A stretch of DNA of 64,000 nucleotides from Planctomycetota bacterium (lineage in GTDB: Bacteria > Planctomycetota > MHYJ01 > JACQXL01), in NCBI GenBank assembly GCA_043801445.1, contig JAZDMB010000032.1, positions 29,438-93,437 on the forward strand, read 5' to 3'. Positions 7,331-55,831 of this stretch are shown here, piece after piece. The notes below the pieces were generated by a model. The model did not search any database. It saw only the letters and a program-made list of their open reading frames with translations, and was not told where the DNA came from. How positions within the stretch are numbered: position 1 is the first letter of the stretch; each line of letters starts with the position of its first letter. A program made the translations under genes and the position numbers.

Positions 7331-7423
7331 CGGATTTTTTCTTTCATATCTTTGTGGCAAATTAATATAATTTCCGATACTATTAAGGAAAATCTTTACC
7401 CTTAAAGACACAAAGGGAATAAT

Positions 7424-8454: not shown

Positions 8455-8579
8455 TTGCCCGACTGGCAGGCGGGTCTGCGGTAAACCGTATTGTAAACTT
8501 TCACCACAAAGGCACAAAGAACACAAAGTATTTTTCTCTCTGCGTCTCTGCGGTGAACCTACCCGACTCGTCAGGCAGG
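8455..8579. repeat. Intergenic mosaic: two GC-rich palindromic elements (8455-8477, 8558-8579) flanking a CACAAAG/CTCTGCG heptad hairpin (8496-8556)
   Basis: CTTGCCCGACTGGCAGGCGGG; CACCACAAAGGCACAAAGAACACAAAG...CTCTGCGTCTCTGCGGTG; CCTACCCGACTCGTCAGGCAGG. Confidence 0.8.
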
Positions 8580-9857: not shown

Positions 9858-10805
9858 CTATCCCCTCAGGACTACTACCTCAAATGTATTATCCGCTATA
9901 GCCGGTTGGTTCAGCAGGATTGAAATCCCTGTCCCTTGCGGTAGCCCCGGTAACAGGAATAGTTGTCTAATCAACTGGTCTTGATTCACAGGTATAGAGT
10001 AACCCAAAATCACACCGCCATTCAAATCAGGGTCACCCAAAGGCGGATATAGTCCGCCTACCTGTAATGCCGGAATCGTGATACTGATAACCTTGTAGGA
10101 TAATTTGGTTTTCGTCACCGCGCCGTTCTGGATTTTTTCCGTTGACACACTGTCTACTGCCAACTGACTACTGCCTACTGCGCCAGCCCCAATTTCATCT
10201 GTAGCCACCGGAGGCACCAATGGTCTTGATACACCGCCACCACCCGGAGCAATCCACTCAAATCTTTCCTGTGCCTGATTGTAAGAAGGGACTTCGCCAT
10301 TAGCCGGAGCATCGATTGCCCTGATATGTCTTGGCTCAACCGACCCGTTAATAATCTCCAGATAGCCCACCGAATTAGAAGCCAGTTTTACTTTAGTCAC
10401 TGAGTTAGTGGCAAGTTTATCGGCAGTAACAGCGCTTGCCTTTATCTTATCCGCAGTAATCGCGTTATTCTGGATTTTAGTTTCGGAAACCGCATTATCG
10501 GCAATTTCCACAGTTGCAACGGGCGGGGTCAAAGGTCTGCCCAGAACCCCATCACTGATTTTGTCTTTAGTGATAGTTCCGTCTGCGATTTTAATGCCCG
10601 TGATTGCACCGTCAATAATCTTGCTTGTAGATATTGAACGGTCAGCAATCTTCTCGCCCGTAACCTGCTTATCAGCAATCTTATCAGTCTTAACTGCCCC
10701 ATCCTTGATTTTGTTAGTCGTAACCGAATTATCAGCCAGTTTGGATTCGGTTACCGCATAAGATGCGATGTTTGGGGTTTTGACTTCATTTGGTTTTAAT
10801 GACAT
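9858..10805 (-). CDS. Repeat protein with about 20 copies of an 11-residue K-I-x-D-G-A-V-T-type repeat (beta-helix-like; tail-fibre-like or adhesin-like)
   Basis: Visible periodicity NKIKDGAVKTDKIADKQVTGEKIADRSISTSKIIDGAITGIKIADGTITKDKISDGV... followed by a non-repetitive C-terminal domain. Confidence 0.6.
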   Translation of the reverse strand: MSLKPNEVKTPNIASYAVTESKLADNSVTTNKIKDGAVKTDKIADKQVTGEKIADRSISTSKIIDGAITGIKIADGTITKDKISDGVLGRPLTPPVATVEIADNAVSETKIQNNAITADKIKASAVTADKLATNSVTKVKLASNSVGYLEIINGSVEPRHIRAIDAPANGEVPSYNQAQERFEWIAPGGGGVSRPLVPPVATDEIGAGAVGSSQLAVDSVSTEKIQNGAVTKTKLSYKVISITIPALQVGGLYPPLGDPDLNGGVILGYSIPVNQDQLIRQLFLLPGLPQGTGISILLNQPAIADNTFEVVVLRG

Positions 10806-11008
10806 ATAAATCTCCTTTTAGAGCCAGTTAGAATCCCGCTTTAGCGGGATGAGTTACAGGCTCTTATCCCGATGAGCATAGCGACATCGGGGTCTTTGCC
10901 ACAAAGCACACAAAGGACACAAAGTTAAGTGTTTTATTATGCTTCGTAGTTTATTTACTACAGCGTAGGGGCGGTTTTACCCGCCCCCACAATCTGTATA
11001 ATCTGTGG

Positions 11009-11821
11009 CTACACCGTTGACACCTGGATTTCCAGGAACATCTTACTATCCACCAGAATGTAGTCGCAATGACTATCTCCGCCTGTAGTGAATGGCTCAT
11101 ATGTTACGGAATCCTGCAAGCCCTTGATTATCGCATTAATGGCGTCGTTCTCTTTGGCAAAAGCCGCCGCAAGCATTTTGCTATCAAGGATAATCACGCC
11201 GCTTTTGGTCAGTTGCTGTGCCAGAGCCACCTTTAGGGCAGTTCTGGTATCAACCGTTGTGACTTGCGCCACATTGACCGGACCGCCTGATATGACTATA
11301 TCAGCTCCGCGGATATGACCCTCCGCAGTCGGCTCATCAGTCAGCCAGAGCGGAGCAATGCCGGACACCGATTTACCGATGGTTTTTTCCCCGGTAAAGG
11401 GCAATGACCGTTTTGCTACCCTGCTGACATACAGGTCAACCGCATTATCAACGCTTTCCTTGTAGCGTTTGCCGATTTCGCCGTCAATCTCCTCAAATGC
11501 CCGAAGCAACTTGGCTTCGTATTTATTGAAGGTGTTTAGGACGTTCTCGGCCTGGGTATTGACGATGTCATTCCGGGACTTACCGCTTCGTGACCTGAAG
11601 GTGGCAGACGGGAACGGTGCATAACCTTCACTGGATGGTCCGCCCAGTTTAAGTTTGTAAGCCATTTCGTCCGGTATGATAAGTTTCCGTTTCATATCAA
11701 TTACCTCTGCCTTGTTCTTCAGACCGTCACGCCAGCCGTTGCTCATATGTTCCGGGATTGTGGTTAAATCCAGCGGCACGAACAACCTCACTTTACTTAC
11801 TATTGTTGACATTTTTCTCAC
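11009..11821 (-). CDS. Hypothetical protein (270 aa; size fits an HK97-fold capsid or encapsulin-like shell protein, but no supporting motif was found)
   Basis: Clean ORF with repeat elements on both sides. No recognisable catalytic motif. Confidence 0.5.
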   Translation of the reverse strand: MRKMSTIVSKVRLFVPLDLTTIPEHMSNGWRDGLKNKAEVIDMKRKLIIPDEMAYKLKLGGPSSEGYAPFPSATFRSRSGKSRNDIVNTQAENVLNTFNKYEAKLLRAFEEIDGEIGKRYKESVDNAVDLYVSRVAKRSLPFTGEKTIGKSVSGIAPLWLTDEPTAEGHIRGADIVISGGPVNVAQVTTVDTRTALKVALAQQLTKSGVIILDSKMLAAAFAKENDAINAIIKGLQDSVTYEPFTTGGDSHCDYILVDSKMFLEIQVSTV

Positions 11822-11858: not shown

Positions 11859-11990
11859 CCCGCCTGACTGGCGCCAGTCGGGCAGGTGCGCGCATCGTTT
11901 GGTTTGTTTCACCACAAAGAACACAAAGGTCACAAAGAATTTCTCTGTGTGCTCTGTGTCTCTGTGGCAAAGATTACTTGCTGAGCCAGT
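11859..11990. repeat. GC-rich palindromic element (CCCGCCTGACtggcgccaGTCGGGCAGG) plus heptad hairpin (CACAAAG x3 / CTCTGTG x3)
   Basis: Read directly from sequence. Confidence 0.8.
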
Positions 11991-12375
11991 GTCTGAGTTT
12001 CCTGATTCCAATTGCATAGAGTTCCAAGACCCTGTTTGTGCTGATACCCACAGCCAGTGCGGTGTAATTAACCGAGCGCCTGTAAGAGGCAATCTCCATA
12101 ACTACTTCCGCCTCTATTTGGCTCACGATTCCGCCTTCTACTGCTTCTAAAAGAGTGGACGAACCCATATAGTTCCGAAGTTCCTTGTTTGTCTCTGGAA
12201 CAGCGGGCGGAATGGCTGGCTCCGCTTCCGGGGCGGGCATCACTGCACCTGCCCTAATGATTTCTTCTAACATGGTTTTTCTCCATCTCTGCCACTGAGA
12301 CACAGAGTCCACAGAGGACTTAGTGTCTTTGTGTCTTGGTGGCTGTTTAAGGTGTTCATATCTATTGTCCTCCAA
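11974..12375 (-). CDS. Small sigma-70 region-4-like HTH protein
   Basis: C-terminal IEAEVVMEIASYRRSVNYTALAVGISTNRVLELYAIGIRKLRHWL resembles sigma region 4 / LuxR-type HTH. The N-terminal ~35 codons of the track ORF are encoded by a CACAGAG/CTTTGTG repeat, so the true start is probably the Met near 12270 (MLEEIIRAG). Confidence 0.55.
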   Translation of the reverse strand: MEDNRYEHLKQPPRHKDTKSSVDSVSQWQRWRKTMLEEIIRAGAVMPAPEAEPAIPPAVPETNKELRNYMGSSTLLEAVEGGIVSQIEAEVVMEIASYRRSVNYTALAVGISTNRVLELYAIGIRKLRHWLSK

Positions 12376-12544
12376 AATACATAAGGTGAATTGTCGCAGG
12401 TTGGCTGATATTATTTTTGCATGATTTGGCTAATTTGCCTTAACCCCAGTATTGGCAAGCAATTTGAGCCAAAGAATTTTTGAGGAATTTTTGGAATGCG
12501 CTGATTTTAGCCGAATGATTTGGAACTAGTTCCCTCTTTTGGGC

Positions 12545-12875
12545 TCATAAGGTGCGTCCTTCAGCGATATACCCTATGTCCTTATGAATAAAACCGTATG
12601 TCCTTTTGGAATAAACCCAATGTCCCTTTGTTATAAACCCTACGTCCTTATGAAATAAACGATATGTCCTTCTGTTTCAAACGGTATGTCCTTTTGGAAT
12701 AAATCGTATGCCCTTTTATTTCAAATCCTATGTCCTTTTGGAACAAATCGTATGTCCTTTTGTTCTAAAAAGTGTGTCCCTTTAGAATAAATCCAACGTC
12801 CTTATATAACAAACGATATGTCCTTTTATAATAAACGGTATGTCCTCTTGGGAAACACCCTATCCAGCGTGGGAA
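12545..12875. repeat. Direct tandem array of ~13 x 22-bp units (consensus TATGTCCTTTTGGAATAAATCG), iteron-like
   Basis: Units abut with no spacers. The TATGTCC core is conserved and the 3' half is variable. Confidence 0.9.
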
Positions 12876-12982
12876 TAATACCTACTACCTCTTAGATAAC
12901 ATGGGGTATCCCCTGCCAGTAGGGGGGTGGGGGTAAACCAAGGGTAATTGGGTGATTAGGATATTAGGAAATCAGTGGGGAA

Positions 12983-13654
12983 TTAGGGAATTGGGAAGGG
13001 TTCGGGTTCTTCGTCGTCCGGGATATTATCTATGTCGTGCTTCCATTCGTCCGGGTTATAGGCCTTTAACTGGAACTTGGTCTTGTAGGTGTAGGCTTCG
13101 GAATAGGGATGGAACGGGTCTTCGGCAAGCCCGAAGAACGTCTTGAGTTTCTGACGCAGTCCGTAGATTGACTTCTTGGTGCGTGAAATCTCTTTGGCTG
13201 AGTATTTATCGGTATGAATGATACTGGATTTGCCTATCATTTCCGTGGATTCCGAGTCGTCATCATCACCATCTGCGTTCCAGCGGTGCTTGATTCTGCC
13301 GCCCTTGCGCCAAGGGAGTTCGCCGTCGTGCTCTGCCAGCCGTTGCAGTAGTTTCCAGTGCCGGTCAGGGCTCAGCCGGCTCTTGCGGAGTTTATCGTAG
13401 CAATCTAATTCTACGAAATTGACCTTACGGGGCTTGGGCATAACGTTGCGGATTGAAATCAGGGCGTATGTCTCGCTCAGTTTAATAACAATATCTTGCC
13501 AGTTAGTTCCGGTCGGAAGTGGGAATTTGGGCGTTCTGATAGCGGAGAGAACCGGCGCCTGTGCCTTGAACCCGGAAAGGAACGAGATAATCTGGTCTAA
13601 TTTACGGTTGATAGACTGTAAACATTCATTATCAATATTGTCTTTGGAGGACAT
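12983..13654 (-). CDS. Hypothetical acidic protein (223 aa, DGDDDDSES patch)
   Basis: Starts 8 bp after the stop of the DUF4238-like gene, so likely co-transcribed. No recognisable domain. Followed by the 22-bp tandem array. Confidence 0.6.
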   Translation of the reverse strand: MSSKDNIDNECLQSINRKLDQIISFLSGFKAQAPVLSAIRTPKFPLPTGTNWQDIVIKLSETYALISIRNVMPKPRKVNFVELDCYDKLRKSRLSPDRHWKLLQRLAEHDGELPWRKGGRIKHRWNADGDDDDSESTEMIGKSSIIHTDKYSAKEISRTKKSIYGLRQKLKTFFGLAEDPFHPYSEAYTYKTKFQLKAYNPDEWKHDIDNIPDDEEPEPFPIP

Positions 13655-13662
13655 AATTATTT

Positions 13663-14628
13663 CTATTTAGAATTAGGTGTCGTATCAACGAAATTCTCTG
13701 ATATATTAAAATAAGGTTTTATATTATCTTTAATGAACTCAGAATCAGTAGAAGAATAGATGCATTCATTAGCCCACATTAATGTTCTATTATTAAATAT
13801 TTTAACATTTTCAGGGGGTAATGGAATGACACTTGGTTTTTTATACCAAGTTAACATCAAACAAATACTGGGACATAACGGGATAGTTATTTCAATATCT
13901 TTTTGAGCAATCCCATAACCGTACGGACTATTCTGGAGTTTCGGATTAAATAAAACAAAAGGATTATCAGAGGTTATAAAGGGATGCTCGTCAAGCGTTG
14001 CTAGATAGGAAAAATTCATACGAGCAATCTTATTTACCAAACTCATATCTTGGCCTAAAGTAACCATGGCTCTAAGGTGGGGAATATTGTTAACAGAAAT
14101 ATTATATTTTTTACTTAGTGCAAATTGTCTCAGATTTTCCACCTCACCTGGTTTATTGCCGACATCTATTTTAGCTTTCTTTATCGTATTCTCAAAAAGT
14201 GTTTTATCTGAGGCAACCATTAATGTTGCCTTCTTAATTACATCCTTTATAAACACATTAATATTTTCTCTCATATCAGGCGTTCTTAGAAACAGATACA
14301 AAAGAAAATACGCCAGGTCGGTTTTTTCCTGATTAGATAGGCGGACAGGATTTCTGAGGATTTTCTTTATGACATTGAAAGCTCCGCTTTCTATTCGCGC
14401 AAGAATTGTTTCTAAATCTCTATTTGGCCTGTCTTCTTTATCTTTTACGGTATAGAACTCTTTCTGAACGGCAACATTTATTAGATTCGCCCGAAAAGGT
14501 TTTCTCTGGCGGTGAAAAACCCAGATTGCGTCAGTAATTCTCTTGTTTTTATCGGGAATACAAAAATTCTTAAGATAGAATTGCGGAATAGTATGCTGTC
14601 TTTTAGTGTTATTATTTGATGTTCCCAT
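13663..14628 (-). CDS. DUF4238-like protein
   Basis: N-terminal KRQHTIPQFYLKNF resembles the conserved H-x-V/I-P-Q-F-Y-L motif that opens DUF4238 proteins. 321 aa. Confidence 0.6.
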   Translation of the reverse strand: MGTSNNNTKRQHTIPQFYLKNFCIPDKNKRITDAIWVFHRQRKPFRANLINVAVQKEFYTVKDKEDRPNRDLETILARIESGAFNVIKKILRNPVRLSNQEKTDLAYFLLYLFLRTPDMRENINVFIKDVIKKATLMVASDKTLFENTIKKAKIDVGNKPGEVENLRQFALSKKYNISVNNIPHLRAMVTLGQDMSLVNKIARMNFSYLATLDEHPFITSDNPFVLFNPKLQNSPYGYGIAQKDIEITIPLCPSICLMLTWYKKPSVIPLPPENVKIFNNRTLMWANECIYSSTDSEFIKDNIKPYFNISENFVDTTPNSK

Positions 14629-14710
14629 ACTTATTTTTGTTCGGAATTATGTATTGCGTTATCAGAATTATTCAGTTATTACCACATTAATATTTTGATT
14701 GCTCTCGCCA

Positions 14711-15079
14711 TTATTCATCTTTCCGTATAAATGAATTGATTTCATCAGAAACTGTATCCAAAATAATAAGTAAGATTACTACTAATCCCATTAGTGATAA
14801 CCCAATAGGATAGATTATATTCCTTATCGGTTTTATCTCTTTCTCTGGGAATATACTAATAATCAAAGATAACACAACTAAACTTGCTAAAGCAAAAATG
14901 TCCCCCTTAAGGAACCAACCTATTAAACGGATAGAATCGCTTTCGTAATGAATTGTCTTACATATTGGACAGGTCTGATATCTATGAGTAACTGATACAT
15001 GTTTATCGTCAGTCCCTTCCCATTTATGCTTACATCGCTTACATTCTAATAATCTTAGTGTTTCCATAAAACCTCCCAT
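14711..15079 (-). CDS. Small membrane protein with N-terminal CxxC...CxxC zinc ribbon and two TM helices
   Basis: CKRCKHKW...CPICKTIH, then two hydrophobic helices (IFALASLVVLSLIISIF and IGLSLMGLVVILLIIL). Lies 82 bp upstream of, and co-directional with, the DUF4238-like gene. Confidence 0.55.
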   Translation of the reverse strand: MGGFMETLRLLECKRCKHKWEGTDDKHVSVTHRYQTCPICKTIHYESDSIRLIGWFLKGDIFALASLVVLSLIISIFPEKEIKPIRNIIYPIGLSLMGLVVILLIILDTVSDEINSFIRKDE

Positions 15080-15133: not shown

Positions 15134-16177
15134 TTAATCCTGTGTAGTCGCAACGGAGTCCCGATTATTTCGGGGTTGTTTTATTCCTTCAAGTTCGCCG
15201 AGTTTATCGCGCGCTTCGGCATAGTCGGGTTGAATCCGAATCGCCTCTTTGAAGCATTCCATCGCTTTCTGGTTATCGCCCCGAAGTTCTTCGGGACTCC
15301 GCTTCGCTTCGCCGGTTTGTTCATAGGCCACGCCCAGATTAAAGTGCGCTATGGCAAGGTCAGGTTCAATATAAATCGCCTCGTTATAGCATTCTATCGC
15401 TTTTTGATGCTCGCCTATTTTCCCATACATAAAACCGAGATTATTATGCGCCTCGGCATGGGCAGGTTTAAGCCGAATCGTTTTTTCAAAGCATTCTATC
15501 GCTTTCTGATAATCGCCGGCTTCCCCATATATACGGCCAAGATTACAGAGCATCTCGTCATCGTTGGGGTCAAGCCGAGTCGCCTCTTTGAGGCATTCTA
15601 TGGCTTTCTGGTTATCGCCTGTTTTCATATAGGCAAAACCAAGGCTACAGTGTGCCAGGGCATAGTCAGGTTTAAGCCGAATTGCCTCTTTATAGCATTC
15701 CATCTCTTTCTGATAATCGCCTGTTTTCCAATACGCCACGCCTAGATTATAGTGCGCTATGGCATTGTCAGGTTTAAGCCGAATCGCCTCTTTATAGCAT
15801 TCTATCGCTTTTTGATTATCACCCCCGCCTGAACAGCCGGGTTGGGCAGGTGTTTTATCATACAGAAGACCAAGACCATAGTATGCATCGGCATTGTCAG
15901 GTTTAATCCGAATCGCCTCTTTGAGGCATTCTATCGCTTTCGGATTATCACCTATTTTCCCATAGATACGACCAAGGTTACAGTGTGTATCGGCCAGGTC
16001 AGGTTTAATCCGAATCGCCTCCTTAAAGCATTCTATCGCTTTCTGATAATCACCTGTTTTCGCATACAGAACACCAAGACTACAGTGTGCATCGGCATAG
16101 TTAGGTTTAAGCCGGATTGTCTTCTTAAGGGATTCTATAGATGCTTCTATAAGTACATTTTTCATAACGGCCTCCAA
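15134..16177 (-). CDS. TPR repeat protein with about 9 near-perfect 34-aa repeats
   Basis: Repeated QKAIECxKEAIRxKPDxAxAHxNLGxxYxKxGDY. C-terminal PRNNRDSVATTQD is encoded by a TCCCGATTATTTCGGGA palindrome. Confidence 0.85.
   Translation of the reverse strand: MEAVMKNVLIEASIESLKKTIRLKPNYADAHCSLGVLYAKTGDYQKAIECFKEAIRIKPDLADTHCNLGRIYGKIGDNPKAIECLKEAIRIKPDNADAYYGLGLLYDKTPAQPGCSGGGDNQKAIECYKEAIRLKPDNAIAHYNLGVAYWKTGDYQKEMECYKEAIRLKPDYALAHCSLGFAYMKTGDNQKAIECLKEATRLDPNDDEMLCNLGRIYGEAGDYQKAIECFEKTIRLKPAHAEAHNNLGFMYGKIGEHQKAIECYNEAIYIEPDLAIAHFNLGVAYEQTGEAKRSPEELRGDNQKAMECFKEAIRIQPDYAEARDKLGELEGIKQPRNNRDSVATTQD
15230..16140 (-). repeat. Intragenic 102-bp tandem repeats (TPR units)
   Basis: Near-identical 34-codon units repeated ~9 times. 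Confidence 0.85.
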
Positions 16178-26628: not shown

Positions 26629-26856
26629 AATCTACCAATATACAATTTCTAATACCAATTTCAAATAAACCCCGTTAGAAAGTTTACATAATGAAGTGAA
26701 GGCAATTATTTACAAACCTTAAAATTGGCAGTATTTATTTGTCAAATGCTTTATCTTTGTTATCATAAATTTAAGGATATAACGCCAGTTTTAATATCCC
26801 TCCGCAAGGCGTATGCCCTGGCGGATTCCTAATTAATTAAAAAAAGGAGCAGAAAA

Positions 26857-28194
26857 ATGACAGGAAAAAATCAGGTGTTGATGGTTTTGCTATCTCTATT
26901 TATTATTTTTGGTTTTATTTCATTGTCCCTGGTTGAAGCCAAATCCAAAGAAGAAGTCTATCAGGAAAAACTTGCTCAGGTAAAAGAGGGAGATCTTAGG
27001 GGGTATTTTGATTTGGGTCTATGGTGCCAGCAGAATAAATTAGATGCTCAAGCCAAAGAGATGTTTGAGAAGATTATTGCATTGAATCCTGACCATTTCG
27101 GAGCCAGAGATAAATTAGGTTATGTTAAATACAAAAACCAATGGATTAAAAAAGATGAAATAGCCAAAGTAGATTATGAAGAAAAACTCACCAAATTAAA
27201 GGATGATGATACTAAAGGATTTTATGAATTAGGTCTATGGTGCCAGCAGAATAAATTAGAGACTCAAGCCAAAGAGATGTTTGAGAGGGTTATTGCGCTG
27301 GACCCTGAGCATACCGGAGCCAGAGAGAAATTAGGTTACATTAAATATAAAAACAAATGGATTAAAAAAGGCGAGGAAACTAAAGCTGATTATGAGGAAA
27401 AACTCGCCAAATTAAAAGATGATGATGTTGAAGGACATTATGGATTGGGTTGTTGGTGTAAGGAAAAGAAACTGTTCTATGAAGCCCGTGACGAATTTGA
27501 AAAGGCGGTTAAATTAGATGCTAATCACCAAAAGGCGCAAAAAGAACTGGAACTTATCACTCAACAGTTATCACCTACAGGTTTTCTCAAGAGGCCAATG
27601 GATAACTATAAGACTCATTACTGTGCGAATGTTCCCAAGCAATACGATTCAAAAAAGAAATGGCCGCTTATCATAGGTTTGCATGGCACAGGCGGGACAG
27701 GCGACATGTTCCTCAGACGGCGCTGGGAACAAATAAGTAATGAAAAAGGTTACTTGGTTATCGCACCTAGATCACCAGGTAACAATTGGGATATAAAAGA
27801 TGAGGATTTCGTAATGGCATGTCTGGATGATTTCAAAAAGGATTACCAGATTGATACATCCAGAATCTATTTAACAGGTTTCTCGGGCGGTGCATCTATG
27901 GCTTTACTTTTCGGCATGAATAATTTTCAGAAATTTGCCGCCCTGGCGATGGTAGGCGGAGGCGAACAAACAGGCCCTATTAGCCCAAATACCGTGGTAT
28001 TACCATTATACTTTTTAGTAGGCGAGAAAGACCAGAGCACCAAAGGTGTAGTAAAGCCGGTTACTGAACAATTGGAACAACAGGGATTTAGCGTTAAATA
28101 CGAAGAAATGCCTAATATAGGACTTGACTGGCCTGATGATACATCAAGCAAAATAATCAATTGGTTTGAATCATTACTATCTGCGGAAAAGTAA
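26857..28194 (+). CDS. Secreted alpha/beta-hydrolase (esterase / PHB-depolymerase-like; GFSGG nucleophile elbow) with 2.7 N-terminal 72-aa repeats
   Basis: Signal/TM at the N-terminus. Repeats YFDLGLWCQQNKLDAQAKEMFEKIIALNPDHFGARDKLGYVKYKNQWIKK. C-terminal LIIGLHGTGGTGDMF...IYLTGFSGGASMAL. Confidence 0.75.
   Translation: MTGKNQVLMVLLSLFIIFGFISLSLVEAKSKEEVYQEKLAQVKEGDLRGYFDLGLWCQQNKLDAQAKEMFEKIIALNPDHFGARDKLGYVKYKNQWIKKDEIAKVDYEEKLTKLKDDDTKGFYELGLWCQQNKLETQAKEMFERVIALDPEHTGAREKLGYIKYKNKWIKKGEETKADYEEKLAKLKDDDVEGHYGLGCWCKEKKLFYEARDEFEKAVKLDANHQKAQKELELITQQLSPTGFLKRPMDNYKTHYCANVPKQYDSKKKWPLIIGLHGTGGTGDMFLRRRWEQISNEKGYLVIAPRSPGNNWDIKDEDFVMACLDDFKKDYQIDTSRIYLTGFSGGASMALLFGMNNFQKFAALAMVGGGEQTGPISPNTVVLPLYFLVGEKDQSTKGVVKPVTEQLEQQGFSVKYEEMPNIGLDWPDDTSSKIINWFESLLSAEK
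26965..27540 (+). repeat. Intragenic 216-bp tandem repeats (2.7 copies) in the esterase gene
   Basis: GLWCQQNKL...KEMFE...GYVKYKNQWIKK repeated. Confidence 0.85.
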
Positions 28195-36574: not shown

Positions 36575-36592
36575 CCCCGTTAGAAACGGGGT
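36575..36592 (+). terminator. Hairpin CCCCGTTAGAAACGGGG downstream of dnaE (possible terminator; the CCCCGTTAGAAA motif also recurs at 26672 and 44428)
   Basis: 7-bp GC stem with a 3-nt loop. T-rich tract only a few nt further on. Confidence 0.3.
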
Positions 36593-41854: not shown

Positions 41855-41899
41855 TTTCTACCACAAAGAACACCGAATCTCTGTGCGCTCTGTGTCTCT

Positions 41900-42859
41900 G
41901 TGGCTACGAATTTTCTTTCTATTATGACAAAATCTCCCTGCGAAAGATATTACGACCGCGTGGCTCATTCGTATGACGACTCCTACTCCACGAACCCTGA
42001 CGGGTTCTCTGAGCGAGGACCCGGAACGGGCAAAAACCCTTATTGGGATTTCTATAACGCAGTCACTTGGCATAACCTGAAAAAATATCTGCCCCAATTG
42101 AAAGGCAGACGGATATTGGATATCGGCGGCGGCACGGGCCTGTGGGCTTTGAAACTCGCTAAATCAGGTTTTGAGGTTACGCTGGCGGATATCTCCCAGA
42201 AGATGCTGGACATGGCTCTTAACAAAGCAGAAAAAGCGAACCTCTCATCAAAGATTACATTTGTCAAAGCGGATATCTGCGACCTATCGGTGTTTGAAGA
42301 GAAAACCTTTGATATGGTATTAGCCCAGGGCGACCCGCTCTCGTGTTGTGAAAATCCTTATCAGGCAGTCAAGGAAGCCTATCGCATACTCAAAGACAAG
42401 GGATTCTTTATCGCCTCGGTGGACAATAAATACAGCGGGATGAAAGTGTTTTTAGAACAAAATAAGATAGATGAATTGGAAGAATTCATCAAAAGCGGCA
42501 AGACCAAATGGTTCACCAATGACATCAACGAACAATACCCGATTACCTATTTCACGCCGGCCCAATTAAAGAAATTATTTACCGGAAACGGATTTGAGGT
42601 ATTGACAATCATCGGCAAGACCGTATTACCTATCAGGCAGAATAGCGTCCCGATGCTCCGATACGGGACGCTCCGTATCCGCTCCGATGCTCACGAGCGG
42701 AGCGCCCCATATCCGAAGGCATCGGGACGAAGGCATCGGAGCGAGATATTAAAAGACCGTTCAGCATTTGACAGATTATTGAAATTGGAATTGCAACTCC
42801 ATTCCGAAGAAGCATTATTAGGTTCAGCCGGCCATCTGGAAATCACCGGGCGAAAGTAG
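41900..42859 (+). CDS. Class I SAM-dependent methyltransferase with a repeat-encoded C-terminal extension
   Basis: Motif I ILDIGGGTGLWALKLAKSGFEVTLADIS. The last ~70 codons overlap nested CCCGATGC-type palindromes at 42640-42745. Confidence 0.75.
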   Translation: MATNFLSIMTKSPCERYYDRVAHSYDDSYSTNPDGFSERGPGTGKNPYWDFYNAVTWHNLKKYLPQLKGRRILDIGGGTGLWALKLAKSGFEVTLADISQKMLDMALNKAEKANLSSKITFVKADICDLSVFEEKTFDMVLAQGDPLSCCENPYQAVKEAYRILKDKGFFIASVDNKYSGMKVFLEQNKIDELEEFIKSGKTKWFTNDINEQYPITYFTPAQLKKLFTGNGFEVLTIIGKTVLPIRQNSVPMLRYGTLRIRSDAHERSAPYPKASGRRHRSEILKDRSAFDRLLKLELQLHSEEALLGSAGHLEITGRK

Positions 42860-43056: not shown

Positions 43057-44352
43057 TTAAATATTATCCCCGCAGACCCAGCCTGTAGAAAAAGCCGCCT
43101 GCATATTATATCCGCCTGTCTTGGCATCTATATCTATTACCTCGCCTGCGAAAAAGAGTCCCCTGACAATCCTTGACTCCATTGTCTTTGGGTTTATCTC
43201 CTTTGTATCCACCCCGCCTCTGGTAACTATCGCCTCGCTGATAGGCATCACGCCTTCAACCGTTAATCTCAACCCGAACAACCCCTCTATCAGACTTTTA
43301 CGTTCCTCGGCAGTAACCTGATTTGCGCCCTTATTACCATCCAACTTGCAATATTCAATAAACCGCGCGATTAGACCGCCGGGCAGAAGGTTCTTGAATA
43401 TATTCTTTATACCCTTATTCGGAGCCGCCTTGAATTCGCGTAACAACCTCGCATCAAGTATTTTATAATCCAGCGCGGGCTTAAAATTAATGGATATTGA
43501 CACCTTATTCTCCTGCCCGACCTTTCGGTCCCCGCCCGGATGAACATCCGTTCGGACGGGGTTCGGGCGGGTAAGTGCCAGTGCGTCATATACCGCGGCG
43601 CTTATGTCAAGCACAATCGGACCTGATATTCCGAAATGAGTAAAAAGCATCTCTCCGAACCGCTCATCAACCGGCTTATTATCAGCGAATAGCGTCAGAC
43701 GCACGTTCTTGAGCGAGATACCCTGCCAATCATTGATAAACCGCTCCTTGATGCGCACCGCAGACAGCGCCGGTTTCAAGGAAACTATCCGGTGCCCTAA
43801 TTTCTCAGCCAGTTTATAACCGTCGCCGGTTGAGCCGGTCTGCGGATACGAAAGCCCGCCTGTGGTAATGGCGATATGCGATGACGGAAATAACTTACCT
43901 GAAACTGTTTGAAGACCCTTTACACGTTTGCCCTCTGCAACCACATCCTTCACCCGTTCGCCTGACAGGATTACGATATTCTTATTATTTAATTTAGATT
44001 TCAGGACATCCAGGATATCGGCTGAAAGATTACTTATTGGGAATACGCGGCCGCCCCGTTCGGTCTTGAGTTTCAGACCCGCATCCTCAAAGAATGAAAT
44101 CAGGTCGGTGTTAAAGAACCTGGCGAAAGCGTTCCTCAGGAAATCGCGTGATTCCGAAAACTCAGCCAAAAACCCGTTGATATCGCCTGAATTAGTAAGA
44201 TTACAGCGTCCCTTACCGGAGATGAGCAGTTTCCGGCCCGGAGACTCATTGCGTTCAATCAAGAGGACTTTCCTGCCCCGTTCCGAGGCTCGGATAGAAG
44301 CCATCATCCCGGCCGGACCGGCGCCGATAACAATCGCATCAAACTGATTCAT
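43057..44352 (-). CDS. HI0933-family FAD-dependent flavoprotein (BaiN / aminoacetone-oxidase-like)
   Basis: DAIVIGAGPAGMMASIRASERGRKVLLIERNESPGRKLLISGKGRCNLTN. A nested GC-rich palindromic element is read through in-frame at 43512-43572. Confidence 0.85.
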   Translation of the reverse strand: MNQFDAIVIGAGPAGMMASIRASERGRKVLLIERNESPGRKLLISGKGRCNLTNSGDINGFLAEFSESRDFLRNAFARFFNTDLISFFEDAGLKLKTERGGRVFPISNLSADILDVLKSKLNNKNIVILSGERVKDVVAEGKRVKGLQTVSGKLFPSSHIAITTGGLSYPQTGSTGDGYKLAEKLGHRIVSLKPALSAVRIKERFINDWQGISLKNVRLTLFADNKPVDERFGEMLFTHFGISGPIVLDISAAVYDALALTRPNPVRTDVHPGGDRKVGQENKVSISINFKPALDYKILDARLLREFKAAPNKGIKNIFKNLLPGGLIARFIEYCKLDGNKGANQVTAEERKSLIEGLFGLRLTVEGVMPISEAIVTRGGVDTKEINPKTMESRIVRGLFFAGEVIDIDAKTGGYNMQAAFSTGWVCGDNI

Positions 44353-44883
44353 AGGAAAAGTTAACCACTCCCGACAAAGTCTGTCGGGATCCCGTTGTAG
44401 CCCACTTGGATAGCCCAGCGGGAAAAGACATTCACCCCGTTAGAAATTATTGTTACAGGGTAATGATAAGAATAATATAAAGTTTGTTAGTGTAATACTA
44501 TTTATTTTAGATATTTATTTCTTCGGATGCAGTCTTCTTCTTGCTACCCTGTGCCATAGGCACCTGCCCGACCGTCAGGCGGGGATCCGCCTCTGGCGGA
44601 AACGAGGCAGGGCACTCAAAGGATTAAAACTATTTTTTTTCCTTGACGCCCCAGCGGACTAGCAGACAGGTTTATCTGTTCATCAGTTTACTCACTTTCT
44701 ATCTCTACAACTGGATATAAGTAACGGGTTTGTGACTTATCCGGCAGATATGAAAAATGGCGGTTTTGTATAAACTCTTGATTTGAAATGAATTAAGAAA
44801 AATAAAAAAATATGCAAAAATCCGAAAATAGCGCTCTCTGTTACTTATGGGAACCTATCCACTACGGGATTCTACCCTACCTA

Positions 44884-45062
44884 CCTATGGTTATATGGGG
44901 TATATCCACTAGTTAGTAGGGATACCTCCTATGGTTATACGGGATACCTCCTATGGTTATATGGGATACTACCTATGGTTATATGGCATACTCCCTATGG
45001 TTATATGGGATACCACCTATGGTTATTAGGGATACTACCTATGGTTATATGGGATACCTCTA
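44884..45062. repeat. Direct tandem array A, ~8 x 22 bp (GGGATACCTCCTATGGTTATAT)
   Basis: Read directly from sequence. Bounded by CCCTACCTACC (44874-44884) and its inverse GGTAGGTAGGG (45088-45098). Confidence 0.9.
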
Positions 45063-45139
45063 CTGGAGGGTACGATATCCCCCCTGGGTAGGTAGGGTAA
45101 TATAGGGGGGAGGTAGGGGGATGGGTAATTTTCTTATTT

Positions 45140-45462
45140 TTATCAGGGCTATATTTCTCGGCAGTCGGGTATATGTTCCTTGGATTGGCAGGATATGTTT
45201 CCGGGCTGAAAGGCATCTGTTTCGTGGCTCAATGGTGTATGTTTCCCGGCTCAAAGGCGTATATTTCCGTGCCGAAAGGGGTATGTTTATTACTGATAAC
45301 TAGTATGTATCCCGGCTCAGAGGGGTATGTATTTTGGCTTAACCCTCTATGTTTCTTGGGTATAAGGTATATATTTCAGGACTAAAGAGGGTATATTTCT
45401 TGGCTTAGGGGAGTATGTTTATTGGCTCAAGGGGATATGTTTCGTGGCTTGGAGGTATGTGA
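45140..45462. repeat. Direct tandem array B, ~14 x 22 bp (GGCTCAAAGGGGTATGTTTCNT)
   Basis: Read directly. Ends in GGGATACCCTACCCCCCACCACCCC. Confidence 0.9.
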
Positions 45463-45534
45463 TGGGATACCCTACCCCCCACCACCCCTATATACTATAT
45501 ACTATGTTCTATATACTGAATTTCAATTTTCCAC

Positions 45535-45563
45535 TTGACAGATTATAAATGCAAGAGTATATT
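45535..45563 (+). promoter_or_regulatory. Sigma70-like promoter (TTGACA-N17-TATATT) for the 45618 gene
   Basis: Consensus -35, 17-nt spacer, good -10. Sits 55 bp upstream of the ATG, with GGAGG RBS at 45607. Confidence 0.5.
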
Positions 45564-45617
45564 TACAGCATTCCGAAGGCTAGTGTTACCGGAATTCACT
45601 AAAAATGGAGGTGTGAT

Positions 45618-46748
45618 ATGAAAACAGATAATCATAAATTCAAGATAATAGGGTTGCCGATTTTAATTGTTAGTGTTAGCATAATGTTCTGCTTTTTTAT
45701 ATCCAATTATAATTATGCAACTGAAGATAAAAAAGTGGAAGTTTTAACTGTTCCACCATCACAGTTTTGTGAATCTTATCCGGTTGCTTGCAGGTATGTT
45801 GAATGGATTCGTCTTAAGCTCAAAGGGAAATATGATATGGATAAATACGGAAGAGACAAATTAAAATTACTACATATAGTCCATGTGGTATTCACAGAAA
45901 TAGATACCGCTGGTAGTACTATGAACCAAAAAGAAGGATGCTACACGGATTTCGTAGCTTCGATAGGATTAAGAAGTAGTGTAGAAAAATTCGTTGATAA
46001 GATTTTCAATAAGAACGATTCTTCTCCTGAAGAAATAAGATTCCTTGAGATTTTTAATGAAGAGATTTATCGTGGCGGACCTGCACTTGAATATTTATGG
46101 CCAACACCTATGCGGAAATCTACTAAAGAGGAATATCAAGACAGGATAAAACAGGCTTGGCAAAAACTTAGGACTATTCAAAATGAACTATCAAATCTTA
46201 TAAGTGATACGCTTGTTACCACTATAAAAATAGATTCTCCTAATAGAAAACTTCTTCCTTTGATGTATCTGCTTCAAGCATATAATTACGGCTGGCTGGA
46301 AGAATACAAGCAAGCCATAGCAACATATGACAAAATAATAAATTATGATATGGAAGGATTTGACGACTATAAATTAACCGCGATGTTTAATAAAGCAAGA
46401 TGTGTGGGAGCATTATCAAAGGATTATGAGATACAAAATAGATATGGAGGCCTATGGAATTTTATGCCTTATAAAACATGGCATTGGTATAAAGACAAAG
46501 AAGGGAATCATATATCAAATTATTATTATGATATAGCTGTTCTATCGCGGTGTAAAGAAGCCAATGCGGTTTATGAAGAAATTTTAAAGAATTACAAACA
46601 TCTTTCAAAGACAAGAAGGGCTATTTTTATATGGATACAGGAAATAATGGCTGGGAAACCATTGCCTGAGTTATACTCTTCTCCTCCAATAGAAGACGCT
46701 AACAGCGATAAACCAGAACAACCCGAAAACAAAGATACCAATAAATAA
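45618..46748 (+). CDS. Hypothetical membrane-anchored protein
   Basis: Single N-terminal TM (IIGLPILIVSVSIMFCFFI). 376 aa with no recognisable motif. Sits behind a strong sigma70-like promoter and the double tandem array. Confidence 0.6.
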   Translation: MKTDNHKFKIIGLPILIVSVSIMFCFFISNYNYATEDKKVEVLTVPPSQFCESYPVACRYVEWIRLKLKGKYDMDKYGRDKLKLLHIVHVVFTEIDTAGSTMNQKEGCYTDFVASIGLRSSVEKFVDKIFNKNDSSPEEIRFLEIFNEEIYRGGPALEYLWPTPMRKSTKEEYQDRIKQAWQKLRTIQNELSNLISDTLVTTIKIDSPNRKLLPLMYLLQAYNYGWLEEYKQAIATYDKIINYDMEGFDDYKLTAMFNKARCVGALSKDYEIQNRYGGLWNFMPYKTWHWYKDKEGNHISNYYYDIAVLSRCKEANAVYEEILKNYKHLSKTRRAIFIWIQEIMAGKPLPELYSSPPIEDANSDKPEQPENKDTNK

Positions 46749-47232: not shown

Positions 47233-47305
47233 ACCGCAGAGACGCGGAGTGCGCAGAGTGAAAAACAATAAAATTCTCTGTGTTCTCTGTGCCTCTGTGG
47301 TGAAT
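47233..47305. repeat. Heptad hairpin element (CGCAGAG-type left arm, CTCTGTG-type right arm)
   Basis: CCACCGCAGAGACGCGGAGTGCGCAGAGTG...CTCTGTGTTCTCTGTGCCTCTGTGGTG. Confidence 0.8.
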
Positions 47306-53852: not shown

Positions 53853-54614
53853 ATGAAATCAATCGCTATTGCTAATCAAAAGGGCGGGGTCGGTAAAACA
53901 ACCACAGCTATTAATCTTGGCTATTGTTTGGCGCTGGCTAATAAAAATACCCTGGTTATTGACCTTGACCCTCAAGCTAATGCTACCAGCGGTCTTGGAG
54001 TTACACCTGACAAGTTTTACGGTTCATACCAGATTTTATTAGAGGGTATTATTAAACCGGAATCAATCAAACAAACATCTTTTCATGCTAAATTATCAGT
54101 AATTCCAAGTTCACCGATAGTGGCATCACTTGAATATAAATTCGATAAGGGAGTTATAGTAAAAGAACGGCTTAAGAATATTTTGCTTTCGCTAAAAACC
54201 ACTTATGATTTTGTTCTTATTGATTGCCCTCCTTCTTTCGGCAATATTGCCATTAATGCGCTTAACGCCGCCGATTCAGTTATTATTCCTATACAATGCG
54301 AGTATTTTGCTATGGAGGGCCTAAGCCAGACTATAAGAATTATTAACACGGTTAAGTCAGAATCAAATCCATCGCTTTTTATTGCCGGTATTCTTTTAAC
54401 TATGTATGATAACTCTTTACAATATAACAGAGAAGTTGCTATAGAAATAAGAAAACATTTTACCGGTAAAGTATTTAAGACTATTATACCAAGAGATGTG
54501 ATTATATCTGAAGCGAGCAGTTTTGCTAAACCGGTACTGGAATATGACGTAACTTCAATAGGGACAAGTAGTTACGTAGAACTTACTCGTGAGATTTTGG
54601 GGTATAATAAATAA
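53853..54614 (+). CDS. parA: Chromosome partitioning ATPase ParA/Soj
   Basis: IANQKGGVGKTTTAINLG deviant Walker A; 253 aa. Confidence 0.93.
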   Translation: MKSIAIANQKGGVGKTTTAINLGYCLALANKNTLVIDLDPQANATSGLGVTPDKFYGSYQILLEGIIKPESIKQTSFHAKLSVIPSSPIVASLEYKFDKGVIVKERLKNILLSLKTTYDFVLIDCPPSFGNIAINALNAADSVIIPIQCEYFAMEGLSQTIRIINTVKSESNPSLFIAGILLTMYDNSLQYNREVAIEIRKHFTGKVFKTIIPRDVIISEASSFAKPVLEYDVTSIGTSSYVELTREILGYNK

Positions 54615-54625
54615 ATATTAGCTGT

Positions 54626-55702
54626 ATGGAAAAAAAGTTAGGCCGTGGTCTTGAAGAATTATTTAAGGATATAAATGTTGAGCAACCTCTTCCCGCCCAC
54701 GAAGACGAGGCTCACCTCCGACAACAGGTCGAACCTGCAAATAAACCTGTTATTATGCCTCATGAAATAACTCCTTCTCCAGAGGCGGATCCCCGCCTTA
54801 CAATCGGGCAGGCGCCTATGGCACAGGATAGCAAAAAGAAGACTGCATCAGAAAAAATAGAACGTTATTTATCCGAAACTGCAAGTGAAAATCTCCCTAC
54901 AGGTATTATGCTGTTGAAAACAGACCAACTTATCCCTAATCGTTTTCAGCCGCGCAAGTCATTTGATAGGGAATCATTAACTGAACTTATCGAATCAATC
55001 AAATCTGCCGGAGTTCTCCAGCCAATATTAGTGAGGCAATCCGGTAATTATTATGAAATCGTGGCAGGTGAAAGACGTTGGAGAGCATGCCTCGAACTTA
55101 AAATAGCCTCTGTCCCAGCGATTGTCAAAGAAGTAAATGACCAAAAGATGTTAGAATGGGCACTTATAGAAAACACCCAGCGAAAAGACCTTAATGCTAT
55201 TGAACGAGCTCGAGCGTATAAAGAATTAATGACATTTTTTAACCTTACTCAGGAAGAAATAGCTAAAAGGGTTGGTCTTGACCGCGCTACAGTCTCAAAT
55301 TTCATTAGACTGCTTGATCTTCCTAATGAAGTGCAGGATGAAGTTGCCAAGAAATCTATAACAACTACTCATGCCAGGAGCCTATTATCTATAAATGACC
55401 CTACCCTCCAAGTAAAACTCTGCCAGAGGATAAAAAGAGAGGGAATGTCAGTAAGACGTCTTGAATACATAATGAGATGGTTAAGAAGACGGAATATACC
55501 ACCTATAACCACCCCTCCATCATCTGCCGAACAACTTCATATAAGAGAGATAGAGGATAGGTTGAGGCGTAAGTTTAATACCAAGACCACTATATATACC
55601 ACTGATAATAAACAGGGTAAAATAATCATATCATTCTATTCTGTAGATGACTTTCAACGTATCCTTGATAAATTAGACCAAATACCTGATGTTTCTCAAT
55701 AG
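54626..55702 (+). CDS. parB: Chromosome partitioning protein ParB/Spo0J with an extended low-complexity N-terminal region
   Basis: LGRGLEELF start, ParB boxes (LIPNRFQPRK; VAGERRWRA), HTH, C-terminal dimerisation domain. About 80 extra N-terminal residues include a GC-rich palindrome at 54793-54826. Confidence 0.9.
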   Translation: MEKKLGRGLEELFKDINVEQPLPAHEDEAHLRQQVEPANKPVIMPHEITPSPEADPRLTIGQAPMAQDSKKKTASEKIERYLSETASENLPTGIMLLKTDQLIPNRFQPRKSFDRESLTELIESIKSAGVLQPILVRQSGNYYEIVAGERRWRACLELKIASVPAIVKEVNDQKMLEWALIENTQRKDLNAIERARAYKELMTFFNLTQEEIAKRVGLDRATVSNFIRLLDLPNEVQDEVAKKSITTTHARSLLSINDPTLQVKLCQRIKREGMSVRRLEYIMRWLRRRNIPPITTPPSSAEQLHIREIEDRLRRKFNTKTTIYTTDNKQGKIIISFYSVDDFQRILDKLDQIPDVSQ

Positions 55703-55831
55703 TTTCTCAAAATCAATTCTTAAAAACATTGTTTCTCGTGAAACATAGTCCCCTTATCTTGTATTCTATACTATGGCATAATAAGGTGCCTTATAGATAT
55801 GGTTATCAATGATTCTATGGTAGGCTATGAC

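Follow-up and report, generated by a model that had tools for sequence, protein, structure and literature searches.

What is a long run of abutting 22-bp repeats doing in the 1,265-bp gap (44353-45617) between two divergent genes? We have considered this question for a 64,000-nt stretch of contig JAZDMB010000032.1 (assembly GCA_043801445.1); this whole stretch is called the window below. An earlier sequence-only reading of the window had placed two tandem arrays in the gap and proposed for them the role of a replication origin, a partition site or a binding array for a regulator. We found that the arrays are parts of a single lattice (locus L1, 44853-45490), that a related lattice, unnoticed in that reading, is situated ∼32 kb away in the same window (locus L2, 12531-12960), and that arrays of the L2 type accompany orthologs of a gene for a 223-amino acid (aa) protein in related genomes. 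Most likely, L1 is a copy of a lineage-specific cis-element, a 22-bp lattice with C/G-rich caps, acting at the DNA level.

Related lattices at two loci

The L1 lattice consists of 29 uninterrupted steps of 22 bp (∼640 bp in total), in which several unit types are arranged in blocks: a C-rich cap, array A (nine units), a G-rich block, array B (14 units) and another C-rich cap. The features are as follows (no strand is assigned to them).

44831-44852: single degenerate unit of B/C type, TCTGTTACTTATGGGAAC, directly before the cap; homologous to the last array C unit of L2
44853-44896: module X1, the C-rich cap CCTATCCActacGGGAttcTACCCTACCTACCT, two lattice units long; holds the left inverted-repeat arm (44873-44890)
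44897-45072: array A, unit GGGATACCNCCTATGGTTATAT; eight units here, nine if counted from 44875; mean identity 81%
45073-45149: module Y, the G-rich block, 3.5 lattice units long; holds the right inverted-repeat arm (45082-45099)
45150-45457: array B, consensus TATGTTTCCTGGCTCAAAGGGG; 14 units, 72% identity, no indel
45458-45490: module Z, the X-like C-rich cap GGGATACCCTACCCCCCACCACCCC; a predicted RNA fold pairs Z with Y2

Both arrays were found where the sequence-only reading had put them. Tandem Repeats Finder reported array A at 44878-45060 (period 22, 8.3 copies, 80% matches) and array B in fragments only (45194-45288 and 45391-45450), while a repeat search returned seven in-register copies for A and eight for B, with all spacings being multiples of 22. 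On a fixed 22-bp lattice, nine units fall to array A (44875-45072, 81% identity to the consensus) and 14 to array B (45150-45457, 72%), net indels being absent from both. The earlier statement that this is not an array of clustered regularly interspaced short palindromic repeats (CRISPR) is correct, as the units abut on the lattice with no unique spacers, and the 22-bp period, equal to two helical turns, is indeed the key feature. What has to be revised is the independence of the two arrays. The unit-marking TATG occurs at 44930 + 22k in A and at 45150 + 22k in B; since 45150 − 44930 = 10 × 22, the G-rich block between the arrays is in register as well, with the phase being carried from A into B across the 77-bp Y block. 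Arrays A and B are blocks of one continuous lattice.

The blocks are framed by inverted repeats. An 18-nt repeat (89% complementary, arms 44873-44890 and 45082-45099) flanks array A, and a second, imperfect one (GTAATATAGGGGGG... and ...CCCCTATATAC) brackets array B; the bracketing sequences sit at 44875-44885, 45087-45125 and 45464-45488. Also within module Y are GTAATATAGGGGGGAGGTAGGGGG, to which module Z is the inverted counterpart, and, at 45086-45120, a motif of the G-quadruplex type.

Chance origin of the arrays is excluded; they are real and non-random. The number of periodic patterns matching the arrays expected from shuffling was 0.00-0.02, and in an autocorrelation scan of the whole window (lags 5-60) no array appeared at any lag but 22/44. 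The same scan detected no 22-bp array in ∼1 Mb of unrelated metagenome DNA (75 other loci from a metagenome search with the flavoprotein encoded to the left of L1), and none was present in 69 kb of related Omnitrophota DNA away from the gene cluster described below. Substitutions are distributed unevenly over the positions of a unit, with a core being kept and other positions being free to vary (P < 2e-4 for B; P = 0.04 for array C of L2); in array B the conserved positions are 1-8, 11-14 and 20. The arrays also show higher-order periods of 44 and 66 bp, and homogenisation has been block-wise.

The second locus, L2, and its genes comprise the following features (strand given where assigned).

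12531-12860: array C, consensus TATGTCCTTTTGGAATAAACCG on the plus strand and CAAAAGGACATACGGTTTATTC on the gene strand; ∼15 units, 74% identity, no indel
12861-12960: cap, composed of the X-like module CCTATCCAgcgtGGGAataaTACCTACTACCT, one A-like unit and a G-rich Y-like module
12983-13654, minus strand: 223-aa gene; it belongs to an uncharacterised family and keeps its synteny with the array in related genomes; its product is a candidate array-binding protein
12274-12530, minus strand: conserved leader between array C and the next gene, with a palindrome, an AT-rich direct repeat, a 30-mer and an insertion resembling a repetitive extragenic palindromic (REP) element
11974-12273, minus strand: 99-aa gene (MLEEII...), with a C-terminus weakly resembling sigma-70 region 4
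9858-11821, minus strand: two conserved genes further downstream, one for a 270-aa protein without a family match (11009-11821), the other for a phage-tail-fibre-type repeat protein (9858-10805)

A short-query blastn comparison of L1 with L2 found nothing, and the L2 leader has no similarity to the L1 flanks; the kinship of the loci is established by gapped alignment, common register and common architecture. The consensus of array C has TATGT, a G at position 12 and an A-run in common with that of array B, while array C and array A, both read from TATG, are alike at 13 of 22 positions. Array C passes in register into the C-rich module CCTATCCAgcgtGGGAataaTACCTACTACCT, and the Y-like module reads CTACTGGCAGGGGATACCCC on the gene strand (12903-12922). 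Alignment of the junctions of the two loci (in L1, TGGGAAC-CTATCCActacGGGAttcTACCCTACCTACCT...GGGGTAT) gave a score of 25 against a background of 12.5 ± 2.2, with 4 of 8297 alignment windows reaching 25. Each junction copy is located where an array ends, and the two agree in strand and in phase. The two loci are therefore built on one plan: B/C-type array, X, A-type array, Y, B-type array, Z, with 1, 8 and 14 units in the three arrays of L1 and 15, 1 and 0 units in those of L2. L1 is one member of a small array family, not a unique site. The search for further unit copies, which the sequence-only reading had suggested, revealed within the window this one related locus and no isolated units. 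Scattering of the units over many loci, together with an origin placed elsewhere by skew, had been named there as the sign of a generic satellite; only half of that picture applies, there being one other locus only.

Arrays next to the 223-aa gene in related genomes

For the 223-aa protein we found ∼10 close homologs and fetched their contigs. Every fetched ortholog with enough downstream DNA carries a repeat array after the gene, except L215, where no array is shown, a Cas6 remnant follows the gene and the contig ends ∼400 bp downstream. The array-bearing orthologous set consists of five contigs from four lineages (protein identities 46-79%). There are 12 units (CGAAGGGACATACGGTTCAAGA) in L204 (GCA_043807745.1) and 15 units (GTATAAGGACGGTCAGCATATC) in L205; three contigs from one aquifer, L207, L208 and L209, carry arrays as well (15 units in L208). 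The most distant ortholog, L212 (the row with 46% identity in the domain alignment), has five units spaced by 66, 88, 66 and 66 bp, each holding the 22-bp palindrome GGGTAGTGTGTTGACACTACCC with perfect arms.

The period is exactly 22 in arrays A, B and C and in those of L204, L205 and L208, and all the L212 spacings are multiples of 22. Thus, seven arrays keep to 22 bp or a multiple of it, and those of the window do so without an indel at 26-28% divergence from consensus. Between lineages the unit has been replaced almost wholly; still, an AGGAC core on the gene strand persists. The array length is also alike across lineages (12-17 units, 264-374 bp).

The order of genes is kept too: variable genes, the 223-aa gene, the C-rich cap, the array, the leader, a 99-112-aa gene, a ∼268-aa gene and the phage-tail-fibre-type repeat gene. 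The cap CTACTGGCAGGGGATACCCC is identical in the window, L204, L207, L208 and L209, and, among the 215 loci fetched, the motifs CTGGCAGGGGATACCCC and GCGACAATTCACCTTATGTAT occur only in those with the array and cap beside the 223-aa gene. The 30-mer CCTGCGACAATTCACCTTATGTATTTTGGA (12371-12400), with which the leader ends, is identical or nearly so in the four lineages with 22-bp arrays, L204 deviating at the 3′-end. Insertions part the array from one or other neighbour in L205 (1.7 kb) and in L212 (toxin-antitoxin genes, 4.5 kb); in both cases the cap stays with the array.

The 223-aa family is represented by 634 clusters in a library of 1.84 billion proteins, the members having in common a two-part C-terminal domain of ∼150 aa. 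A remote member, L214, has no array in its 135-bp downstream gap, which indicates that the link between gene and array is specific to this clade. Among the other genes of the cluster, the fibre-like gene matches phage tail-fibre PHROGs (E = 1e-39). The AlphaFold model of the 99-aa protein, made from a single sequence, has implausible long helices and a predicted local distance difference test (pLDDT) score of 66, too poor for a fold search.

Several other features of these loci were observed. In the leader of the window copy, the palindrome GGGAACTAGTTCC is located at 12522-12534, an AT-rich direct repeat (12471-12498) adjoins array C and the REP-like insertion occupies 12289-12341. The palindrome directly after the array is conserved in position and not in sequence (GGAAC-TA-GTTCC in the window and L204, GTTCAC-ATA-GTGAAC in L208, GTTCAC-ATA-GCGAAC with one arm mismatch in L205); it could be an operator or a hairpin. 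The REP-like hairpin element, CACCAAGACACAAAGACAC...CTCTGTGGACTCTGTGTCTC, is found in many intergenic regions of the window (8505-8552, 10900-10924, 11913-11966, 12289-12341, 41879-41905 and 47274-47299) and in the L204 and L205 leaders; in the window and in L204 alike, an inserted copy separates the conserved leader from the 99-aa gene.

The slot upstream of the 223-aa gene holds different defence- or toxin-type genes in each lineage: DUF4238; NOV_C, Mrr_cat and PIN; DUF1016/YhcG; a weak HEPN-like hit; HepT/MNT; SocA-Panacea; and the Cas6 remnant. Its coordinates are 13663-15079 in the window, 1153-3762 in L204, 662-1708 in L205, 1518-2660 in L209, 3444-7457 in L212 and 6062-6223 in L215.

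L207, L208 and L209, which are replicates of Hainich H41 groundwater, differ in unit number and order, with L209 approximating L208 minus six units; because the array is interrupted by an N gap in L207 and cut short by the contig end in L209, copy-number variation and assembly collapse are indistinguishable here. G-quadruplex-type motifs are located at the cap modules (12922-12952, 12977-13000 and 45086-45120 in the window; 6715-6746 in L205), with six motifs in the window compared with five per Mb in unrelated DNA. The G-quadruplex was dismissed as a defining feature; it is absent from L204 and L208.

In L212 (2890-3241) the palindrome of each unit overlaps a promoter-like TTGACA-17-TATAAA pair, and the array is followed by GGGCTATCCCCCCTGTGGATAAC, which contains the perfect DnaA box TGTGGATAA. 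The promoter scan did not call these pairs, the last base of the −10 element not being T. An interpretation of the arrays as tandem promoters is plausible only for the 66-bp units of L212, as a 22-bp unit cannot hold a −35/−10 pair.

A proposed phased binding platform and the competing explanations

How could such a lattice work at L1? The surroundings of L1 include the following features.

43057-44352, minus strand: HI0933-like flavoprotein gene, left neighbour of L1
45535-45563, plus strand: near-consensus sigma-70 promoter TTGACA-17-TATATT, score 11/12, reading into the gene at 45618-46748
45618-46748, plus strand: orphan gene (376 aa) that follows L1; product without family match, with a hydrophobic segment at its N-terminus

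The sequence-only reading had described flanking genes that diverge and a consensus promoter at 45535 upstream of the orphan gene, and both descriptions are right. Four CTATATA copies (45488-45517) precede the promoter. The orphan protein has one distant homolog among 5.8 billion proteins, on a 1.3-kb contig.

Of the three roles proposed in that reading it is the binding array that survives, strengthened by the conservation of period, phase, core, length and synteny in relatives. We hold, tentatively and ahead of the other readings, that L1 is a helically phased multi-site protein-binding platform controlling the flanking genes. Each unit has a short conserved core, TATGT(C/T)C on the plus strand of the window (AGGAC-ATA on the other). 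With cores placed every 22 bp, i.e. about two helical turns apart, 12-17 copies of one sequence-specific protein could bind on approximately one face of the helix and, being lined up in this way, would polymerise into a nucleoprotein filament. At L1 such a filament would abut the 45535 promoter and set expression of the orphan gene; at L2-type loci it would sit between the 223-aa gene and the operon of the small helix-turn-helix, 270-aa and fibre-like proteins. The 223-aa protein, whose gene is next to the array in relatives, and the small protein resembling sigma-70 region 4 are the candidate binders; both the binding itself and its regulatory output we infer from the lattice, its conservation and the synteny.

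Precedents exist for the elements of this mechanism. At the Bordetella ptx promoter six BvgA dimers bind every 22 bp on the same face (PMC7250471), and BldC oligomerises on direct repeats into head-to-tail filaments (PMC5859096); sopC with its 12 repeats (PMC3177203) is a further example. Neutral evolution would fix indels as well as substitutions, yet seven arrays stay at 22 bp or a multiple. A platform at the DNA level is favoured because a two-turn register suits proteins bound on one face, and a role of RNA has little support.

Several observations weigh against this interpretation. Concerted evolution alone inherits a period, so that the argument from the period is partly weaker than it appears. 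Relative to the adjoining gene, L1 and L2 are not oriented alike. Near L1 the 223-aa gene has no paralog, and the binder would therefore have to act in trans. The insertions of 1.7-4.5 kb in L205 and L212 imply that tight coupling to a given promoter is not required. No isolated units, and hence no sign of a regulon, are seen elsewhere in the window. As to the candidate binders, no relative of the 223-aa family was found in Pfam, NCBIfam, PHROG or the PDB, and its AlphaFold model, built from a 10-sequence alignment, is unusable (pLDDT 40); the hits of the 99-aa protein to sigma-70 region 4 are below threshold (E = 0.012 and 0.049).

The rival that fares best, though we consider it unlikely, is a neutral or selfish minisatellite, which would have arisen once by slippage or unequal exchange, been homogenised block-wise, been copied to the second site and have no function. 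The block-wise homogenisation with its 44- and 66-bp periods is what one would expect of it, as are the complete turnover of unit sequence between lineages, the differences in unit number or order among L207, L208 and L209, whose assemblies break in the array, and the lack of a conserved gene partner at L1. The intergenic regions of the genome are full of other small repeats (REP-like ones and some resembling miniature inverted-repeat transposable elements, MITEs), and 22-bp tandem repeats are common across bacteria. A scan of a genome collection for TATG occurring five times at 22-bp spacing gave at least 120 loci, mostly from Bacteroidota and, among the matches listed, none from Omnitrophota. 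A Rep_3 neighbour, verified as such and often accompanied by ParA, was seen in 11 of the 120 matches listed, with most arrays being unexplained; clustering of the neighbours of the listed loci yielded no family in common with the window. On the other hand, a functionless repeat would hardly persist at the orthologous place down to 46% protein identity, with seven arrays all keeping precisely to 22 bp or a multiple of it, no indels at 26-28% divergence, a conserved core inside otherwise replaced units and a similar length in all lineages, in a window that has no other short-period array of any length class.

As a side result of the scan, 22-bp tandem arrays proved to be very common in Bacteroidota, especially in Prevotella, several having units such as TATGCCATTTACNNNNNNTAAG (loci L002-L121). 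In the window, long in-frame tandem repeats of 270, 102/204 and 216 bp are present in large open reading frames at 6140-6753, 15327-16138 and 27009-27426, which encode a 974-aa protein and tetratricopeptide repeat (TPR) proteins.

One could also speculate, and we regard this as rather improbable, that the capped lattice and the 223-aa family form a new pair of chromosomal cis-element and protein in Omnitrophota, a phase-locked nucleoprotein landing pad with an organising role for a defence-gene insertion hotspot and the tail-fibre-like operon. L1 could then be a second, gene-less pad. Pads of this kind might insulate, form a silencing centre or be targets of recombination or insertion, and the element could be neither origin, centromere nor ordinary operator.

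Somewhat less probable again is that we deal with the iterons of an integrated or domesticated replicon, with the 223-aa protein as a divergent initiator, array C as an origin or an incA-like copy-control element and L1 as a titration or handcuffing array. Direct repeats of 22 bp are the classical iteron geometry, and, as said, 11 of 120 listed 22-bp arrays adjoin Rep_3 genes. The order of gene and then array resembles that of P1 repA-incA; an AT-rich direct repeat adjoins array C (12471-12498), a perfect DnaA box (TGTGGATAA) follows the L212 array, and defence and toxin-antitoxin genes surround the locus, as in mobile elements. However, the 223-aa family is unlike any initiator of Pfam, NCBIfam or PHROG, and Rep_3 itself was ruled out by profile-profile comparison (hhalign probability 0.13%) with a reference alignment taken from neighbours of 22-bp arrays in the genome scan and verified as Rep3_N plus Rep3_C. 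The cluster has no helicase, primase, integrase or partition gene, and no integrase, replication or packaging gene is present around the L2-type loci. Neither tblastn nor blastn gave a match in 72,556 plasmids, 50,697 phages or IMG/VR, the proteins and the conserved motifs both being absent from these phage, plasmid and IMG/VR collections. The DnaA-box-like sites in the window copies carry two to three mismatches, the 12-17 units are well above the three to nine usual for iterons, and the flanking genes are chromosomal housekeeping genes. A domesticated replicon would here lack its defining feature.

The genes of the window are ordinary chromosomal ones (FabF, PrmC, ClpB, acyl carrier protein synthase, GGDEF and TPR proteins, ParA and ParB); no tRNA was found in the window. 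Exact look-ups of proteins of the window returned no entry. The flavoprotein is 100% identical to a protein of a metagenome-assembled genome labelled Planctomycetota; the relatives next after this match are almost all from Omnitrophota, and the source is taken here as an uncultured Omnitrophota bacterium. The flavoprotein orthologs in three relatives (L001, L202 and L203) have no synteny and no array, and the metagenome search with the flavoprotein gave five close relatives on short contigs with no arrays.

To an element acting as RNA we give still less credence. The arrays would be transcribed, those of the L2 type as the 3′ untranslated region of the 223-aa gene and L1 as a non-coding RNA, and a repeated purine-rich GGA-containing motif (forms AAGGACAUA, AGGAGGUAU and GGAAACAUA) would titrate an RNA-binding protein in the manner of CsrB/RsmZ. 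A GGA-type core is indeed found in every array on one strand, no intrinsic terminator was found between the 223-aa gene and the array, and in the predicted fold the X1/Y1 and Y2/Z inverted repeats would close each L1 array into a large loop. Yet the fold energy of L1 is no better than that of shuffled sequences (z = 0.09 and −1.23), Rfam has no match in the window at gathering score, with chance-level hits only at relaxed thresholds, and array B has GAAAC, not GGAC, as its core. No sign of csrA was seen. A sponge needs no strict 22-nt register; in contrast, the register is kept even as 66 and 88 bp in L212.

In the same gap as L1, at 44540-44641, there is a GC-rich region of nested hairpins (CTGCCC...GGCGGggatCCGCC...GGCAGG) followed by eight T. 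A small RNA, or else a terminator, could lie here; the region has no match in Rfam.

Very unlikely is a centromere-like partition or condensation site bound by an adaptor of the ParR, omega or SopB type. In plasmid centromeres 10-12 direct repeats beside the gene of the binder are typical, e.g. the 12 × 43 bp of sopC (PMC3177203), and the 22-bp spacing would give a gently helical filament. No gene of ParA, ParM or TubZ, though, adjoins L1, L2 or the orthologous loci; the two loci lie 32 kb apart on one chromosome arm, and the chromosome already has a standard ParAB system. The sequence-only reading was right in placing parAB ∼8 kb from L1 (ParA 53853-54614, ParB 54626-55702). The link it drew from these genes to the arrays fails, as a canonical parS, TGTTTCTCGTGAAACA (55730-55745), is located 28 bp past parB; it has one mismatch to the 16-bp palindromic consensus TGTTNCACGTGAAACA and is its sole match in the window, none being found in the arrays. 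With parS beside parB, the site of ParB is accounted for.

The chromosomal origin, oriC, had been suggested by the proximity of parAB, the TATCCAC heptamers and the AT-rich tracts. Both heptamers are present, at 44856 (one base to the left of the position given before) and 44903; they are not DnaA boxes, with two mismatches each, and the window has eight occurrences of the heptamer in all. The AT-rich tract at 44440-44530 exists as well, and it begins at a MITE-like terminal repeat, CCCGTTAGAAAT. No 9-mer with at most one mismatch to TTATCCACA was found in 44353-45617, and the whole window has 23 such 9-mers against 18.5 expected, showing no enrichment. The proposed check of GC skew, made within the 64 kb, detected no polarity switch at L1: plus-strand skew is −0.018 to the left and −0.027 to the right, with +0.026 and +0.027 for plus-strand genes and −0.066 and −0.072 for minus-strand genes. 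As dnaA and dnaN, which were looked for, are both absent from the window, a related second locus with the same cap modules means that L1 is not single copy, and the flavoprotein ortholog in relatives lacks an array, oriC has practically no standing as an explanation; on these criteria it is rejected, as is the ParB centromere on those above.

The sequence CCCGTTAGAAAT acts like the terminal inverted repeat of a small MITE-like element (four hits against 0.56 expected). It is located in the window at 44436-44447, at 26671 and as an inverted pair at 36576/36682, as well as at 7356/7426 in L205 and at 3440 in L001, upstream of the flavoprotein ortholog in the latter. Its copy at L1 explains the AT-rich tract that had been taken for an unwinding element.

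Should a phased binding platform be the true explanation, it would provide a concrete cis-element, defined by a 22-bp core and a cap motif and accompanied by two candidate binders, in Omnitrophota, uncultured and very small bacteria, possibly host-dependent, in which gene regulation is almost unexplored. It would also give a first functional handle on a widespread unannotated protein family. As the L2-type locus lies at a site of defence and toxin-antitoxin gene turnover beside a phage-tail-fibre-like gene, the element may bear on the management of mobile DNA or surface fibres. For annotation there is a caution: proximity to parAB and TATCCAC-like motifs do not by themselves make a 22-bp array an origin.

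Likeness to known systems

With CRISPR arrays the element has in common regular short repeats and a defence-rich neighbourhood, even a Cas6 remnant in the same position in L215; it differs in having no spacers, a 22-bp unit, no cas genes nearby in the window and no leader-repeat structure. Minisatellites and loci with a variable number of tandem repeats, such as the mycobacterial interspersed repetitive units, are likewise intergenic head-to-tail repeats found at several loci of a genome, and in the arrays, too, the copy number may differ between strains. Here, in contrast, both the strict period and the core have been conserved, and the array has stayed at an orthologous site across deep divergence.

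The centromere parC of plasmid R1 is made of 10 × 11 bp. Plasmid centromeres such as sopC of F (12 × 43 bp, PMC3177203) resemble the arrays in their dozen or so tandem sites for one nucleoprotein complex, presumed in the case of the arrays, in the adjacent gene of a binder, here the candidate 223-aa protein, and in quick evolution. The differences are the absence of a partition nucleoside triphosphatase next to the arrays, the ParAB-parS system of the chromosome and units that are non-palindromic except in L212.

Iterons of theta-replicating plasmids include those of the Rep_3 family (pPS10, 4 × 22 bp; R6K gamma origin, 7 × 22 bp) and P1 incC/incA; in our genome scan 22-bp arrays linked to Rep_3 were met in loci L026, L042, L092 and others. 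As in the element described here, iterons are head-to-tail direct repeats at exactly 22 bp with a conserved core and a variable remainder, placed beside a small (∼220-aa) gene, with further arrays in the same genome. They differ in having 3-9 units instead of 12-17 and in their neighbour, which here is not detectably Rep_3 or another known initiator; moreover, the window copies do not show a clear architecture of DnaA box plus DNA unwinding element, and the context is chromosomal, with no plasmid or phage homologs.

Phased arrays of the kind bound by BvgA~P (PMC7250471) and BldC (PMC5859096) share with L1 the 22-bp spacing with all sites on one face, the large number of weak or degenerate sites lying upstream of a promoter and reaching up to it, and a varying number of repeats. 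They have 2-6 sites compared with 14-29 here, where the units are tandem duplicates under concerted evolution, no gene of a response regulator or BldC-like protein has been identified and L1 ends ∼45 bp before the −35 element. Taken together, the element is best filed with phased binding-site or iteron-like arrays, as a lineage-specific member.

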